Positions 23,795 to 48,391 of a stretch of 64,000 bases of DNA are shown here, piece by piece (position 1 is the stretch's first letter; every line of letters begins with the position of its first letter). This stretch comes from Dictyostelium discoideum. Its lineage: Eukaryota. The notes under the pieces are model-generated. The model did no database searches, was not told the DNA's origin, and saw only the letters and a program-made list of their open reading frames with translations. Location: positions 5,120,001 through 5,184,000 of the forward strand of contig CM000153.2 of the NCBI GenBank assembly GCA_000004695.1. Reading direction: 5' to 3'. Both the position numbers and the translations under genes were made by a program.

Positions 23795-24134
23795 TTTTTT
23801 TATATTATAATATGTAAATAAAATATTTTTTTTTTAAAAAAAAAAAACAAAAAAAAAAAAAAAATAAAAAAAATAAAAAGAAAAAGAAAAAGAAGATTTT
23901 TTTTTTTTTTTTTGATAATTTTTGATATTTATAGATTTTTTTTTTAAAAAAAAAATGACGTGGTAATCAAAATTGGTAAAAAACAATTATTTAATTAAAT
24001 TTGTTTTTAATATGGATTCAATATAGATAAATAGAGCACCCAAAAATACACAAAAGGATATAAAATATAAAAAAAAAAAAAAAAAAAAGTATAAAAATTA
24101 AATCATTTCGATTAAAATTAATTTCTCTTTTATT

Positions 24135-25250
24135 TTATGCATAGTTGACTGTAGAAGTAATTAATTCATTTGTTAAAAATGTTGCATAGGAAAAAGGAAA
24201 GCTCTTATATAATTTTCTATATCCTTGAGTTTTTACTAAATTAGTTGCTATTGAGATTGGATTAGTTGACAATAAATTAACAGAATTACCAAGATAACGT
24301 TGAACGAATAAAAAAGACAATTGACAAAGAACTGTTTCGCATGGAACGATAGCCAACGTTCTTAAAAAGGTTTTAGCGTATATTGATTTAATTATGAGTG
24401 TTGAATTTCTCCAAAATGTTGATTTTGGATTCTCTAATGATTTAGATTCGACATATTCAATTAATATATTATGTAATTTATTTACAATACCCTTTATAAG
24501 TCTACCTGTAGTATGCATCGCAACTGATGAAATAAAAGCGTAGGCTTCATTTTTAAAATTTAATTTTCCAGTTACCCCATCTTGACAAAGTACAACTTTT
24601 TTAATTAATTCCAAAAATGATAGTTTGTTGGCAGTTTGTATATAACATTCAAGTGAGAATGCAACAAATGATGTATAACACCATAGAATTTCATCCATTA
24701 ATTTACCCATTGTTGAGGATGGATAGATTAATTCATCCTTTAATTTAAAAAGTGGTCGTAGTAAGGAAGGAGCAAAGGTTTGTGCTAAAATGATTTTACC
24801 TAATGAAAATGCATTATTATTTCTATTGAATGATTGAAGAACTCCAAGTGAGTTAGAATAACTTGGAGTTGTATTTATAACAAATGAAGCTATTTTAAAT
24901 CTTGCTGCTAAAATTCCCATAATTGAGAGTAGGGTATGATTTTTTTGATTTAATGATTTAAAGTATTCAAGTTCAAAGGTGACCATCTCATCATGTATTT
25001 CTCTATCATAATAATCCCTTAACCTTTTATCTGAAATTACTGAATAGGCCGCATCGAAACTCTCTGTTTTTTGTTTATCATTTTCGAAATTACTTCAAAC
25101 TTTTTTATTTAAATGAGCAATTTTATCGATAGTATCTTCTTTTTTAACTCCTAAAAATCTATAAAGTTCACCACAATGACATTCATGTGTTGCATAAAAT
25201 ATTTTTACTTTATCTTCTTCAGTAATTGGAAAAATTTGTGTATCTTTCAT
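24135..25250 (-). pseudogene. Paralog 1 of the J-like/tripartite-repeat family, carrying an in-frame TGA (25095-25097); it is either a pseudogene or a base-call error
   Basis: The minus-strand reading frame from the ATG at 25250 reads MKDTQIFPITEEDKVKIFYATHECHCGELYRFLGVKKEDTIDKIAHLNKKV, then TGA, then SNFENDK...MVTFELEY... It is collinear and in frame with paralogs 2 and 3 over its whole length. ORF 24135..24986 is only the part downstream of the stop. Confidence 0.55.
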
Positions 25251-25532
25251 TTATTTATTTATTTTTTTTTTTTTTTTTTTTTTGTTTAAATTATAATGTA
25301 TAATAATAATGATTCTGTTTTTTTTTTAGATATTTTTTGGAAAATTGAGTTGATTTTTTTAAAAAAATAAAACCATCATCATAATTTGTTGTAATCATAA
25401 TTAGTTAATAGAAAAATAAAAAAAGAGGGTTACACTCTTATTAAAAAGTACTCAAAATCATTTTAATTTTAAAGTTTAAAGAAAATTAATTTTATTATTT
25501 ATTTTTAGGTTTATTATTATTATTTTAAAAAA

Positions 25533-26657
25533 TTAAAGGTCTGTTGATATATTAGAAATAAGGTATTCTTCTAATAAAAGGGAGATATAAGAAAATGGTA
25601 AAGATTTATATAATTTTCTATATCCTTGAGATTTTACTAAATCAACTGCTAATGAGATTGGATTGATTGATAATGATAGAGTTGGTTTACCAAGATAACG
25701 TTGAACATATAAATAAGAGTATTGAGAATGAATTGCTTCATATGGAACGAGGAACAATGACATAAAAATACTTTTAACGTATATTGATTTAATTATGAGT
25801 GAGTTTCTCCAAAATGTTGAATTTGGATTCTCTAATGATTTCGACTCAACATATGCTTCAACTTTATTATAACCAATTCTTAAGAGTCTACTTAATGCGT
25901 ACATTCCAAATGATGAAATAAAAGTGTAGGCTACATTTTTAAAATTTAATTTTCTAGTTACCCCATCTTGACAAAGTACCACTTTTTTAACTACTTCCAA
26001 AAACGATAAATTGTGTGCAGTTTGCATATAACAATCAAGTGGGAAGGTTATAATAAATGTAGAGAGATAGGAAACAATTTCATCTGTTAATTTACCAACC
26101 ATTGAGAATGAATAGGTGTATTTATCCTTCAATATAAAAAGTGGTTGAATTATCATTGCAAGAGTTGAAGGAAGCATTGCTTGTGTCAAAACGATTTTAC
26201 CTAATGAAAATGCACTATGTTTTTTAATGAAAGATCTGAGAATTTGAAGTGAACTAATTGATGGTGGACTTGGAGTTGTATTTATTACAAGTGAGATTAT
26301 TTCCAATGGTGCTAATAAAGCTCCAATTGTTGAGAGTAGGGTTTGATTTTTTTGATTTAATGATTGAAAATATTTAAGTTCTTCTCTAACCATATCATCA
26401 TACAATTTTTCATCATAGTAATCTCTTAATCTTTTATCTGAAATTATTTCATATGCTGCATCCAAGCTGGCCGTGACTATTTCATCATTTTTAAAATTAC
26501 TTTTAATTTCTTTATATGTATGAGCAATTTTATCAATAGTATCTTCTTTTTTAACTCCTAAAAATCTATAAAGTTCACCACATTTATGATACTGAATTGC
26601 ATAACAAATTTTTTTAACATCTTCGATAGTAATTGGGAAAATTTGTGAATCTTTCAT
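25533..26657 (-). CDS. Paralog 2: N-terminal degenerate J-domain (no HPD) plus a C-terminal tripartite Px[DE]-repeat membrane-like domain
   Basis: The 374-aa ORF has YRFLGVKKEDTIDKIAHTYKEIKSNFKNDE...AYEIISDKRLRDYYD, a J-domain helix II-III pattern with FKNDE in place of HPD. Three PLE/PLD/PYE motifs follow at about 90-100-aa spacing, each after a hydrophobic stretch. Confidence 0.65.
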   Translation of the reverse strand: MKDSQIFPITIEDVKKICYAIQYHKCGELYRFLGVKKEDTIDKIAHTYKEIKSNFKNDEIVTASLDAAYEIISDKRLRDYYDEKLYDDMVREELKYFQSLNQKNQTLLSTIGALLAPLEIISLVINTTPSPPSISSLQILRSFIKKHSAFSLGKIVLTQAMLPSTLAMIIQPLFILKDKYTYSFSMVGKLTDEIVSYLSTFIITFPLDCYMQTAHNLSFLEVVKKVVLCQDGVTRKLNFKNVAYTFISSFGMYALSRLLRIGYNKVEAYVESKSLENPNSTFWRNSLIIKSIYVKSIFMSLFLVPYEAIHSQYSYLYVQRYLGKPTLSLSINPISLAVDLVKSQGYRKLYKSLPFSYISLLLEEYLISNISTDL

Positions 26658-27351
26658 TTGTTTTTATTTAATGTTAATAATAATTGATTTATTTTCTTTT
26701 TTTTTTGATTAAAAGTGAAAATAAAAAAAAAAAAAATTTTTTGTTTTTTATTAGATATTTCCCAAAAAAAAGATATTTATGTGGGGTAAGCCATAATTTA
26801 TTTTATTTTTTTTTTAAAAATTAAAAACAAAAAAAAAAAAAAAGAATTGTTGTGGAAATAGAGATAAATTAATTAAAAAAAAAAAAAAAAAAATTAAATG
26901 ATTTTGAAAGGGAAACAATAGTTTTACTTGATTGATAAAAGGAAAATGATAAATAAGGTAATGATAACTCGAGTGATGAAAAAATTACTTTAAAAGAGAA
27001 TGAAGATTATGTTATCAATCAAGAACAAGACAAGAAGAAATCATGGTTACTCGAGATATGGAAATTTAATGAAGATTTAGAATTCATATGACGGTAAAGA
27101 AGATGGTGTTTATTATGAAATGGACAAGATGGTGATGAAGAGGATGAAGAATTTAAATAATTATGTAAAAAATTATGTTTAATTCTAAAATGTGATTCAA
27201 AAAAATGCATTATTTCAATTCAATTTGAGTTTAACTTAATTTTTTTTATTTATTGCAATTTTTTTTTTTTTGTTTTTTATATTTTCTATTGTTTTTATAT
27301 ATTTTGAAATTTAATATTTCAGGAATTTTCCAAAGATGGATGGTAAAAATA

Positions 27352-27778
27352 TTAAACAGTATTGCAAGTCAAAACAGTTGAACCTTTGTTTGTTAAGGTT
27401 AATTCAAATCCTCCAAAACTACGGTCATATTCGCCAAAGTCATTAAATGTATCCTGTTCAGCTGGTGAGACTCCAGCTTGCATTTGAATTGTACCAACAC
27501 CACCCCCATCAACTTCACAATTAACAACTGTTGGTTTTGTTGCCCATGTTGGCTAAAAATATATAAAAAAATAAAAAAATAAAAAAAATAATAAATAAAA
27601 GGTTAGGATTTTAAAATGAAATAAATATATTATAAAATTTAATAAAATTTACAATTGATCCTTGAGATTGTCCTGGTTGTAAAGTCCATGGTCTAAATAA
27701 TAATAATTTTAGGTTATTTATTAGATACAATTTCAATTAAAAATGAAAATTTTTTTTATCTTTATATTACCCAGCCAT
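27352..27778 (-). CDS. Small three-exon gene (83 aa) not in the ORF track; exons 27778-27771, 27692-27653, 27552-27352
   Basis: The minus strand reads ATG GCT GG, then a GTAATA intron (78 bp, ends TTTAG), then exon 2 encoding (G)PWTLQPGQSQGSI, then a GTAAAT intron (100 bp, ends TTTAG), then exon 3 encoding PTWATKPTVVNCEVDGGGVGTIQMQAGVSPAEQDTFNDFGEYDRSFGGFELTLTNKGSTVLTCNTV and TAA at 27352-27354. Phases are consistent (2, 0). The region is less AT-rich than its surroundings. Confidence 0.45.
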
Positions 27779-28726
27779 TTTTTATTTAATTTTTTAATTT
27801 ATTTAGAAAATTTTAAGATGTTAGAAAATTTTATAATTATTTAATTTTTAATTATTTAATAAAAAAAAAAAAAAAAATTTAAATATTTTTTTTTTTTTTC
27901 TCAAAAAAAAAAATCAAATTTTAATTCTTAAAATAAATAATTAAAATTCAAACAATCTATTTTTTTTTGGGCATTATAAGAAAAGATTATTTTTTATTGT
28001 GATTTTGATAAGTAAGTTGGTTCTTCTCTAAACAAAAAATAGAAAAGAGGTTTTGTTTTTAAGTTTTCTCCACAAAATATTAAAAAAAAAAAAAAAAAAT
28101 TTATTTTTAACCAAAACTTTCCAAATTAGATTTTTTTTTTTGGGTGAATTTGGCAATTTTTTATTTTTTAAAAAAATTAAAATAAAAATAAAAAATGGTT
28201 GTAAACGTGTTGTTTAAATTGACTTTTAGTACTCTTTTTTTTTATTAATATTATTAAATAATTCCAATTTTTTATGGGCATTATTAGAATTTATTTTGTA
28301 AATATGGTAAAAATCATTTTTATGTTTTTTTTGTTTTTTTTTTTGTTTTTTTTTTTGACCAGTTAGGTGTCTCTTAATTATCCAAAAGTTTTTTTTTTTT
28401 TTTAAAAAAAGGCATTATTTGCAAATGATAATTCAAAAAATAAAATAAAAAATAAAAAAAAATAAATGCCACAATTTTAATTTGTTATGACTTTAAATTT
28501 ATTTTTTTCTTTTTTTTTATTTTTTATTTTTTATAATTTTTATGATTAATGCTTTTAACAAAATACCACAATTTAGAAACACTTTTAAATATTTATTTTA
28601 ATTTGATTTTGCTTGGAACTGGTTTTAATTTTTTGTGATAATAAATATTCACTTAAAAAAAAAGTTTCACAATCTTTATTATAATATACTAATAAATCCT
28701 TGTTTTTTTATTTATTAATTTTAAAT

Positions 28727-29869
28727 TTATTCTGAATATTCTAAATCTCCTTTTAAAAAAGAGTATACAAATCCTTCCAATAAATGTATTAAATAGGAAA
28801 ATGGTAAAGATTTATATAATTTTTTAAATCCTTGGGTTTTTACTAAATCAACTGCTAATGAGATTGGATTGTTTGTTAATATTTGAACTGGGTTACCAAG
28901 ATAACGTTGAACATATAAATAAGAGTATTGAGAATTAATTGCTTCAAGTGGGGCTAGAACCAATGACATTAAAATACTTTTAACGTATACTGATTTAATT
29001 AAGAGTGCGTTTCTCCAAATTGCTGAATTTGGATTCTCCACTGATTTCGATTCGATATATCCTTCCAATTTATCAACTCCAATTCTTAAAGTTTTACTTA
29101 ACACATAAATTCCAAATGACGAAATAAAAGTGTGGGCTAAATTTTTAAAATTGAATTTTCCAGTCACCCCATCTTGACAAAGTACAACTTTTTTAATCAC
29201 TTCAAAAAATGATAAATACTTTACAGTTTGTACATAACATTCAATTGGAAATATAACAATGAATGATGAAAAGTAGTTTATAATTTCATCTGTAATTTTA
29301 CCGGTTTTAGAGAATGGATATGCGAATTTATCTTTTAATCTGTAAAGTTGTTGTTGAACCAATATTCCAATAGTTGATGGAAGAACTGCTTGTGCTAAAA
29401 AGATTTTACCCACTGATAAAAACCCATTATTTTTAAAGAACGATTGAAGAATTTTCATTGAACTAACTGATGATGACGAATTTGGTGCAGTGTGTATAAT
29501 AACCGATACCATTTCCAATGGTGCCAAAGCAGTTCCAACCATACTGAGAAGAGCATTATTTCTTTTACTTATTGATTGATTATATTCAAGTTCTATTCTT
29601 ACCAACTCGTTATAAAAATTTTTATCATAGCAATCTCTTAATCTTTTATCTGAAATTATTGAATATGCCACATCTAAACGTTCAAGAGTCATTTTATCAT
29701 TTTCAAAATTACTTCTAATTTCTTTATATGTAAGAGCAATTTTATCAATAGTATATTCTTTTTTAACTCCTAAAAATCTATAAAGTTCACCACATTGACA
29801 ACCATCAAAGGCATAAATAATTTTATCAACATCCTCTTGAGTGATTTGAAAAATTTGTGTATCTTTCAT
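28727..29869 (-). CDS. Paralog 3: the same architecture as 25533..26657
   Basis: The 380-aa ORF is collinear with paralog 2 and roughly 60% identical by eye (MKDTQIFQITQEDVDKIIYAFDGCQCGELYRFLGVKKEYTIDKIALTYKEIRSNFENDK...AYSIISDKRLRDCYD...PLEMVS...FPIECYVQ...APLEAINSQYSYLYVQRYLG). Confidence 0.65.
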   Translation of the reverse strand: MKDTQIFQITQEDVDKIIYAFDGCQCGELYRFLGVKKEYTIDKIALTYKEIRSNFENDKMTLERLDVAYSIISDKRLRDCYDKNFYNELVRIELEYNQSISKRNNALLSMVGTALAPLEMVSVIIHTAPNSSSSVSSMKILQSFFKNNGFLSVGKIFLAQAVLPSTIGILVQQQLYRLKDKFAYPFSKTGKITDEIINYFSSFIVIFPIECYVQTVKYLSFFEVIKKVVLCQDGVTGKFNFKNLAHTFISSFGIYVLSKTLRIGVDKLEGYIESKSVENPNSAIWRNALLIKSVYVKSILMSLVLAPLEAINSQYSYLYVQRYLGNPVQILTNNPISLAVDLVKTQGFKKLYKSLPFSYLIHLLEGFVYSFLKGDLEYSE

Positions 29870-30411
29870 TTGTTTCTTTAAATAACAATTTTCTTTTTCT
29901 TTTCTATTTTTTTTTTATTTATTTTCAAAAAAAAAATTTTGATATTCAATAAAGAAACAAAAAAAAAATTTTATATTGGTGAAAAAAAAAAAAAAAATAT
30001 CTTTCATAAAAAAAAAAATATCTTTTTAAATTGTCAAAAAAAAATATCTTTTAAAATTGTTTCATTATAAAAAATCATACTGAAAAACAAAACACAAGGC
30101 ATTTTTTTTTCTTTCTAAAACAAAACAGCACTATTTTTCTTTTTTTTCTTTTTTTTTGATTGTTTTTTTTTTGATTGTTTTTTTATTTATTTTTTTTTTT
30201 TTTTTTTAATGCAAATAAAAAAAATTAAATTCTATTTCTTTTTTTATTTTTTTTATTTTTGATTAAAAAAAAGAAAAAAAAGAAAATTTATATTTATAAA
30301 TTGTTTTATCTTTTATTTTAAAATAATAAATATTTTTTATTATTATTATTTATGTATTATTTAATTTACTATTTACCATTTACTATTTATTTATTATTTA
30401 TTGTTAAGTAA

Positions 30412-32456
30412 TTATTTTCCTCTTAATTGATTCCTTCTATGTTTAAAAATGATAAACATTCCAATAAAGATGCAAACCAAATTGAAAACAAAACTTAAAA
30501 TAAAACATGTTCTAAAACAATGAGTTCCATGACACTTTTCTCCATCTACTGATAAACTATCATAAATCTTACTGCTAAATGTGCTAAAGGCAAGTGATGC
30601 TGATGCTGATGAAATTGCCAACTAAAGAAAAAAAAGTAAAATATTAATATTTTAATTTTAAAAATAAAAAAAAATAAAAAAACAAATAAAAAAATAAAAA
30701 AAAAAAAAGAGAGAGAGAAAAAGGAAAACTTACAAAACCGAAATTAATACCAAATCTTCTTGGACCAAATCTTAAACTTGTTAATGATACCATAATTGAA
30801 ACCATTCCACCATAACCAATTCCAGTAATTATAGTTGCTGGATAAAACAAAGCATCTAATTCAAATGAAATGATTAAATGAGTTAAAGAGAGTATAAAAC
30901 TAGATAGAACAACGCACCAGAATCTAGAATATTTTTTAGATCTATTAAATAAATAAAAAAATTTAAAAAAAATTAATTAATTATAATGTTAAATAAATAA
31001 TAGTAGTAAATAATTCCAAAAAATAAAATAAAATAAAAATAATACAAACATAAAATCAGATAATAAACCATTTCCAGCTCTACCTGTCAAATTACTACAT
31101 GCGAAAATAATAACAAGATCACTATAATATGTATATTAATTAATTAATAACAGTTTAATTTTTATTTTTTTTTTTATTTATTTACATGTAATTAGTTTTT
31201 ATTAACAAACATACCTATGAATTGAAGATGGTCTATTAAATGCTTGAGCCATAACTGCAATATTATTTAAAAACATTAAACTAGTACCTGCTGCAAAGAA
31301 ATAAATAATCCACATTAACCAAAATTCCCATTGCTTTAATAATTTTAAACCTGAAATATCTCTTCTACCTATAAACATTTAATAATTTATTATTTGTTAA
31401 TAATGAAAAGAGAGAGGAAAATAAAATAATAATAATAATAATTTTTTATTTACCATCTAAATAATTTGGATTTCTTTCTACATCTAAATCTGCACCTATA
31501 GCTGCAACCTCATCAAAATCTTCGATTTTGTTTAGTAATTTATAACTAGAAGAATCTAAACTATTATTATTATTAGTAATATTATTAATTAAAGTTTTTA
31601 ATTTACCTCCTTTTTTTTGCATATTAACATCACTACTATTTAAGTCACCACTACCCTTGTTATTATCACTACTACTACCACTACCACTACTAGAGGTACC
31701 ATTCTCCTCATCAATTCCAATGTTGCCACCATTTGTAATAGAATTACCACTTATTGTTAGATCTTCAGTACTTTGGTTGAATTGATCACTTAATTTTTGT
31801 TCTTTTTTATCAATTGAATTATCAAGTTGATCAGCATCATCACTATCACTTTGAATTTCTGGTTCTTCGACACCCTCAACCTTTACAACTCTAACAATAA
31901 ATGCTGAAATAAATGCAACAGAACTAAGGAGAATGGCTAAAAATAATAAATATCCTTCGACATCATTATTCTTTTTAAATGTTGATTTATAAATAATACC
32001 AAAAATACCCGATGATAATGCAAACATACCAACTAATATACCTCCAATCTAAAATAAATAAATAAAATAAAATACAAATAAATTGATTAATATTTTATTA
32101 TTATAATAATAATAAATAATAATAAATAATAAATAATAAATAATAATTACCTTTCCTCTATGTTTAATTGTATAATTATGAACATTTGGAACGATTGAAG
32201 CTGTAAATGTTGCATGTGAAGCTTGACCAACTAAAAATAAAAAGAATGATAACAAGTATACATTGTTAATTATTGTACCCTTTAAAATACCCCAAACACC
32301 CATATATCCAATGATATATAATACTGTTGCTAACAATGATGTATAAAATGGTCCGAATAAATCAAAGAAATACCCAACTGTTAATCCAATGTATCTATAT
32401 TTAAATTAATAATATGAGTTAGGAATTTGGAGAGAGAGAGAGAGAAGAGAGAAGAG

Positions 32457-48271: not shown

Positions 48272-48354
48272 AGCAAGGGTAGGAAAGTCTGGTTAAATCC
48301 GTGTGACTTAAGATCTCATCCATTCGGTTCGCGAGTTCGAATCTCGCCTCTTGC
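48272..48354 (+). tRNA. tRNA-Leu (anticodon UAA), class II with a long variable arm, 83 nt, no encoded CCA
   Basis: Manual cloverleaf fold. The 7-bp acceptor stem GCAAGGG/CTCTTGC includes one G-U pair, with discriminator A. U8 and A9 are present. The D-stem is 3 bp, with GG in the D-loop. The anticodon loop is CTTAAGA (anticodon TAA, U33 present), on a 5-bp stem with one U-U mismatch. The variable stem-loop is CC-ATTC-GG. The T-arm is GCGAG-TTCGAAT-CTCGC. Confidence 0.8.
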
Positions 48355-48391
48355 AATGTTTTCTTAATTTCAATTATTCGATTATTGGTTC

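Follow-up and report, generated by a model that had tools for sequence, protein, structure and literature searches.

The minus strand of a 64,000-nucleotide (nt) stretch of the Dictyostelium discoideum genome (contig CM000153.2 of assembly GCA_000004695.1, positions 5,120,001 to 5,184,000; hereafter the window, numbered from its first letter) harbors a small gene of three exons at positions 27352-27778. In a search of 5.8 billion proteins the product of this gene was 100% identical, over 100% of its length (82/82 residues), to the hypothetical protein DDB_G0286957 of D. discoideum AX4 (XP_637488.1, EAL63976.1, UniProt Q54L15). The reference protein and the product of the small gene show no difference and stem from the same gene. 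DDB_G0286957 has DDB_G0286955 and DDB_G0286977 as its neighbors on a chromosome-4-sized contig of 5.45 Mb, and its RefSeq number falls between those of these neighbors (XP_637487.1 and XP_637489.1). Both open reading frames (ORFs) flanking the small gene in the window, and also that of DDB_G0286973, are letter-for-letter the corresponding AX4 proteins (Table 1), which identifies the window as nuclear DNA of D. discoideum. Furthermore, the exact protein bears a precomputed Pfam label, PF26736.1, named DUF8244 (domain of unknown function). That the locus is DDB_G0286957 and that its product belongs to the DUF8244 (PF26736) family is, in our assessment, highly probable. The three-exon gene model is the existing AX4 reference annotation and hence already known, although the original prediction, made from the letters of the window, had described the gene as unannotated. 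In a newer D. discoideum assembly the two flanking genes also have accessions, numbered consecutively (KAM9941770.1 and KAM9941771.1), while the small protein has none; judged by accession numbering only, the newer annotation may have missed the gene. In this respect the remark that micro-exon genes easily escape notice may be justified, yet the reference annotation does contain the gene.

To place the exon boundaries, the minus strand was read from 27200 to 27950 and the edges were set by script. The result reproduced exactly the exons of 8, 40 and 201 nt that had been proposed, together with both introns, their donors and acceptors and their consistent phases (Table 1). The start codon, an ATG at 27778, lies in an A-rich context (AAAAAATGG). 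The spliced coding sequence (CDS) comprises 249 nt, equivalent to 82 codons and a stop, and encodes the 82-amino-acid (aa) protein MAGPWTLQPGQSQGSIPTWATKPTVVNCEVDGGGVGTIQMQAGVSPAEQDTFNDFGEYDRSFGGFELTLTNKGSTVLTCNTV, of which PTVVNCEVDGGGVGTIQMQAGVSPAEQDTFNDFGEYDR is an example peptide. The peptide of 83 aa given in the original prediction (MAGGPWTL...) contained a spurious extra glycine, the real product beginning MAGPWTL..., and the figure of 83 counts the stop codon. Using tblastn, residues 4-16 of the product, encoded by exon 2, were mapped to 27691-27653 with 100% identity. As had been noted earlier, the ORF track is blank here. ORFs of 50 aa or more are absent from 27352-27778, and the longest start-to-stop ORF in the frame of the small gene is a 43-aa piece of exon 3. 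Split into such short exons, the gene is therefore invisible to an ORF track. Retention of intron 1 would lead to a stop directly after MAG, and retention of intron 2 to a stop after 29 residues. An Rfam search of positions 24000-31000 matched no RNA family.

Table 1. Features of the small gene and of its surroundings (window coordinates).
Feature	Position	Strand	Description
Exon 1 (micro-exon)	27771-27778	-	8 nt, ATGGCTGG; codes Met, Ala and positions 1 and 2 of the Gly3 codon
Intron 1	27693-27770	-	78 nt, GTAATA...TATTTAG, phase 2
Exon 2	27653-27692	-	40 nt, codes (G)PWTLQPGQSQGSI; fits the family consensus GPxxLxPGxxxxxI
Intron 2	27553-27652	-	100 nt, GTAAAT...TTTTTAG, phase 0
Exon 3	27352-27552	-	201 nt, codes PTWATKPT...LTCNTV; TAA stop at 27354-27352
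Probable polyadenylation signal AATAAA (by motif match)	27249-27254	-	98 nt 3' of the stop; overlapping second copy at 27250-27245
DDB_G0286977 (XP_637489.1)	28727-29869	-	upstream neighbor, tandem paralog
DDB_G0286955 (XP_637487.1)	25533-26657	-	downstream neighbor, tandem paralog
First tandem paralog	24135-25250	-	two ORFs, 24135-24986 and 25095-25250
DDB_G0286973	22082-23794	-	570 aa
GC-richer patch	26950-27210	+	acidic peptide pieces in shifting frames
tRNA-Leu(TAA)	48273-48355	+	sole tRNA in the window (ARAGORN)

The three-exon structure is far beyond chance. The exons have a GC content of 0.40, compared with 0.12 and 0.07 in introns 1 and 2 and 0.13 in the 300 nt upstream, and GC at the first, second and third codon positions of the spliced CDS is 0.52, 0.51 and 0.17, respectively. 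A codon-usage log-likelihood model trained on the long ORFs of the window assigned the CDS +58 bits in frame, but -51 and -84 bits in the other two frames. Short AT-rich GT..AG introns, exons of higher GC content, AT-rich third positions, an A-rich start and a downstream AATAAA are all present, and these traits are reportedly the norm for Dictyostelium genes according to the genome paper. Intronless bacterial relatives begin MAGP(W/F/Y)xLxPG..IPTW and align without a gap to the spliced N-terminus. As this alignment crosses both M-A-G|P-W-T and S-I|P-T-W, the 8-nt exon 1 and the two junctions are independently validated; the junction of exons 2 and 3 (I16|P17) lies within the conserved IPTW motif and shows no gap in family alignments. 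Thus, codon score, GC contrast and gap-free alignment of homologues uphold the original view of a real protein-coding gene that starts in a micro-exon.

Two other explanations of the same stretch were weighed against this evidence. A frame arising by chance or a decayed structure, such as a pseudogene or a non-expressed relic, is very improbable. It would be in line with a gene model that is read here from DNA and with the missing newer-assembly accession. However, the frame is intact, the splice sites are canonical, the codon bias is frame-specific and exons and introns differ in GC content. All seven family-conserved residues T18, W19, T24, G43, R60, G64 and N71 are kept, a 99%-identical copy and two paralogs of 50-52% identity are intact as well, and the fold prediction is confident. 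The second explanation, that the stretch is a 3' untranslated region (UTR) or a downstream exon of the J-domain-like DDB_G0286977, has a negligible probability; the original prediction had named a 3' UTR of a neighboring transcript as a reading that would overturn the gene. While the small gene does lie downstream of DDB_G0286977 on the same strand, the ORF of the latter stops at 28727, and AATAAA motifs of its own follow after 11, 15 and 47 nt. The ATG of the small gene comes about 950 bp beyond that stop, past a spacer with a GC content of only 4-20%. In addition, the small gene starts from an ATG of its own with A-rich surroundings. Its protein forms an entire domain by itself and begins just as the bacterial homologues do, and the two genes are kept separate in the reference annotation.

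The search for paralogs elsewhere in the genome, which had been recommended, was successful. D. discoideum AX4 holds four family members, DDB_G0286957, DDB_G0287047, DDB_G0269702 and DDB_G0274299. The paralogs sit elsewhere on chromosome 4 or on other chromosome-sized contigs, and none was detected in the window by tblastn. DDB_G0287047, located on the same 5.45-Mb contig outside the window, is 99% identical to DDB_G0286957 and differs in a single residue (G57A), which implies a recent segmental duplication. RNA-seq reads are expected to multi-map between these two genes. DDB_G0269702, DDB_G0274299 and DICPUDRAFT_93131 of D. purpureum are 50-52% identical to DDB_G0286957. Like the latter, the AX4 paralogs and DICPUDRAFT_93131 of D. 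purpureum are 82-83 aa long and start with MAGPWT. DDB_G0286957 and DDB_G0287047 contain a GGG insertion-like loop (D31-G34), which is present in their paralogs too, and end in ...LTCNTV, whereas ...VWTA or ...TVTTE is common in the family.

The family membership was analyzed using several searches. An hmmscan of the product against a Pfam copy lacking the PF26736 model returned no family. A profile built from the product and DDB_G0269702 was then run against 1.84 billion representative proteins. At E<=1e-3 it matched 48 proteins, with 11 reaching E<=1e-10, and the typical length was 80-90 aa. Profile hits to proteins annotated with PF26736 spanned residues 1-82 with E values of 1e-10 to 1e-24, and all 28 listed matches of a word-index profile search carried PF26736. 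Two long repetitive profile hits (P0031 and P0039), apparently spurious matches to repeats, were discarded. From the family alignments (A2 and A4) the consensus MAGPxxLxPGxxxxxIPTW...T.V.V.N....G.....AG.S..E........R.FGG..L.V.N.G...LTV.T. was derived, in which T18, W19, T24 and G43 are invariant and R60, G64 and N71 nearly so. The product shares with this family its length (about 82 aa) and the motifs MAGP, IPTW, AG, RxFGG and N-x-G.

Relatives were found in D. purpureum (DICPUDRAFT_93131), in the cyanobacteria Microcoleus, Limnoraphis and Hydrococcus and in a metagenome-assembled genome of Caldilineales (Chloroflexi), and, with a signal peptide, in Acytostelium subglobosum, the glaucophyte Gloeochaete wittrockiana and the actinobacterium Pseudonocardia xinjiangensis. 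The exact MAGP start is found in 26 of 66 family members, including bacterial genes. Cyanobacterial and Chloroflexi genes of the family display a Shine-Dalgarno sequence (GGAGG or AGGAG) just upstream of the ATG of MAGP and have no introns; eukaryotic copies, in contrast, have introns. In at least 10 members a signal-peptide-like leader ends right before (A)GP, indicating that exported and non-exported members alike conserve the mature N-terminus. Scanning genome contigs with a profile of the cyanobacterial sub-alignment revealed four loci. Two metagenomic contigs with a family gene were also recovered, one cyanobacterial-looking and the other algal-looking (Tic22, cytochrome-b5 desaturase). 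On a cyanobacterium-like metagenomic contig (L001 6729-8270, L002 6045-7586) the DUF8244 gene is located directly downstream of an IS605-type TnpB gene (OrfB_IS605 / Cas12f-like). Beyond residue 73 the C-terminus of the encoded protein (P0033) is aberrant, and the protein may be disrupted.

The product of the small gene is an acidic protein (pI about 4.1) that consists of a single DUF8244 domain and contains no histidine. In agreement with the original description it is rich in glycine (12 of 82 residues, 14.6%) and has no signal peptide, the N-terminus being without a hydrophobic stretch. The beta-rich character claimed for it is likewise supported by eight predicted strands. Using AlphaFold2 (AF2) with a 28-sequence alignment, all five models reached a predicted local distance difference test (pLDDT) score of 90-93 and a predicted template modelling (pTM) score of 0.78; with only two sequences, one of five models was confident (pLDDT 90). 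The fold is confidently predicted to be a generic eight-strand jelly-roll beta-sandwich without a specific structural relative. Neither the single protein nor the profile found more than chance-level matches in sequence searches of the PDB, none of them below E 0.07. A Pfam scan of 37 family members gave only sub-threshold single matches, such as CBM_35_2 at E 0.1. The original prediction had made two more specific suggestions. A beta-gamma-crystallin-like fold was rejected, as no beta-gamma-crystallin occurs among the structural neighbors; as to a lectin, these Pfam and PDB searches gave no sequence or profile match to a known lectin family.

Non-enzymatic domains, namely GOLD, macroglobulin (MG), pre-peptidase C-terminal (PPC) and collagen-binding domains, matched the predicted structure with 80-81 of 82 residues aligned. 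These matches bear on the idea that the protein is a small metalloenzyme or isomerase of the cupin type (double-stranded beta-helix). Cupin matches were equally good but had fewer residues aligned, no cupin Pfam model was matched, and the family shows no conserved His, Asp or Glu triad. With no histidine in the protein and no conserved His column in the family alignments, a metal-cupin enzyme was rejected, and we consider a cupin-type enzyme in general to be very doubtful.

What, then, might the protein do? The 8-, 40- and 201-nt exons would be spliced into an mRNA for an 82-aa leaderless DUF8244 protein, and the domain would act as a non-catalytic binding module, lectin-like or ligand-recognizing, rather than as an enzyme. 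The conserved surface-type residues W19, E48, R60, N71 and F62 are of the kind that could serve ligand contacts. We tentatively propose a non-enzymatic binding or recognition module, possibly involved in interactions with microbes, while rating this function at clearly below an even chance. The suggestion is based on the lack of catalytic residues, the binding modules among the structural neighbors, the secreted relatives, a fusion to a TIR domain and the patchy distribution of the family over prokaryotes and eukaryotes.

The TIR fusion is found in a relative from a metagenome (P0009), an ORF of 249 aa on a JGI contig of 918 nt (3300030962, Ga0138297_1349714; L008 79-828), which combines an N-terminal TIR_2 domain (E 6e-10) with DUF8244 at the C-terminus. 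Its DUF8244 part shares 43% identity with DDB_G0286957, and its TIR part 59% with a transcript of Physarum polycephalum. Other multidomain architectures were not seen in the family. The position of DUF8244 C-terminal to TIR, usually that of the sensor or recognition part, in an amoebozoan relative, along with the many secreted relatives, suggests that an extracellular or defense-related setting is probable for DUF8244 proteins.

Bacterial gene neighborhoods offered further, weak clues. In Microcoleus sp. K4-B3 (L004 1825-7397) a nonribosomal peptide synthetase (NRPS) C-A-T module is followed by the DUF8244 gene, a gene for a small signal-peptide protein and then, two genes downstream of the DUF8244 gene, one for a secreted CVNH lectin-domain protein. 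The small signal-peptide protein, which has no Pfam match, adjoins the DUF8244 gene on its 3' side in both Microcoleus and Limnoraphis robusta (L005 6001-6795). The Microcoleus copy that comes after an NRPS module could also speak for a toxin subunit or toxin-like effector, resembling PirA or Cry domain III and directed at prey or competitors. The insecticidal protein PirA and Cry toxin domains are indeed among the structural neighbors, and a patchy occurrence in both prokaryotes and eukaryotes, as in this family, is characteristic of conflict genes. However, no PirB-like partner or conserved neighbor was found in the bacterial neighborhoods examined, no toxin was matched among the PADLOC or Pfam models, and the structural similarity is of a generic kind. 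A toxin is, hence, an unlikely role for the protein, though less so than a cupin-type enzyme.

Several points weigh against the explanation that we prefer. The splicing and expression of the small gene are here deduced from its DNA, and literature searches for the gene identifiers, PF26736 and DUF8244 found no paper mentioning the gene or the family. The TIR fusion comes from one 918-nt metagenomic contig. Apart from the shared small signal-peptide protein, the bacterial neighborhoods of DUF8244 genes differ and are not conserved. Scans of 37 family members gave no match to PADLOC defense models at E<=0.1, and an NCBIfam scan of the product and 37 relatives gave nothing meaningful. Lastly, since a signal peptide is missing from the Dictyostelium proteins, they would have to be exported by an unconventional route to act outside the cell.

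The window as a whole is strongly AT-rich (15-30% GC), and its ORFs are rich in asparagine codons. The genes on either side of the small gene belong to a group of three tandem paralogs on the minus strand with the common N-terminus MKD(T/S)QIFPIT... (Table 1). DDB_G0286955 and DDB_G0286977 are J domain-containing proteins according to UniProt, and neither matched a Pfam model above the cut-off. The first tandem copy is split into two ORFs, pointing to an intron or a frameshift. DDB_G0286973 encodes a secreted or membrane-anchored protein, listed in UniProt as a right-handed beta-helix domain protein, with a weak match to the Chlamydia PMP repeat just under the cut-off. Downstream of the small gene, the patch at 26950-27210 has a GC content of 0.24-0.29 compared with about 0.1-0.2 around it. 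Its plus strand reads, in shifting frames, GNDNSSDEKITLKENEDYVINQEQDKKKSWLLEIWKFNEDLEFI followed by a stop, YDGKEDGVYYEMDKMV, and DGDEEDEEFK followed by a stop. In appearance this patch resembles either the decayed remains of a coding region or a short gene with introns.

The analysis of this locus is no gene discovery, as the AX4 reference has the model and Pfam the family. Its value is modest and lies in the validation, by intronless bacterial homology, of an 8-nt first exon unseen by ORF scans, and in the description of DUF8244 as a compact 82-aa predicted jelly-roll, whose mature N-terminus is conserved to a striking degree and which occurs patchily in bacteria, amoebae and algae. Together with the TIR fusion, these points may serve as a lead toward a recognition module in microbial conflict. 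A more far-reaching proposal is that DUF8244 represents an unrecognized lectin-like module by which the innate immune system of Amoebozoa would recognize ligands. In dictyostelids the domain would stand alone and exist in several copies, in a Physarum-like slime mould it would be coupled to TIR, and elsewhere it would be secreted; cyanobacteria and actinobacteria would be partners in its horizontal exchange. We regard this proposal as improbable at present, and less likely than a binding function as such.

Known systems offer partial parallels. The GOLD domain (TMED/p24), the bacterial PPC domain and the collagen-binding domain of collagenases share only 2-14% sequence identity with the product, without a Pfam or sequence match, and form parts of larger proteins, whereas the product is a free-standing protein of 82 aa. 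TIR-domain immune proteins occur in Amoebozoa, for instance TirA of D. discoideum. The relative P0009 likewise has a TIR_2 domain, whereas the gene in the window has none, and a functional link between the two would run through the fusion. Should the proposal on innate immunity be true, DDB_G0286957 and the three paralogs would serve as small proteins without a leader in pattern recognition or against bacteria, in a way comparable with the cytoplasmic defense lectins of fungi.
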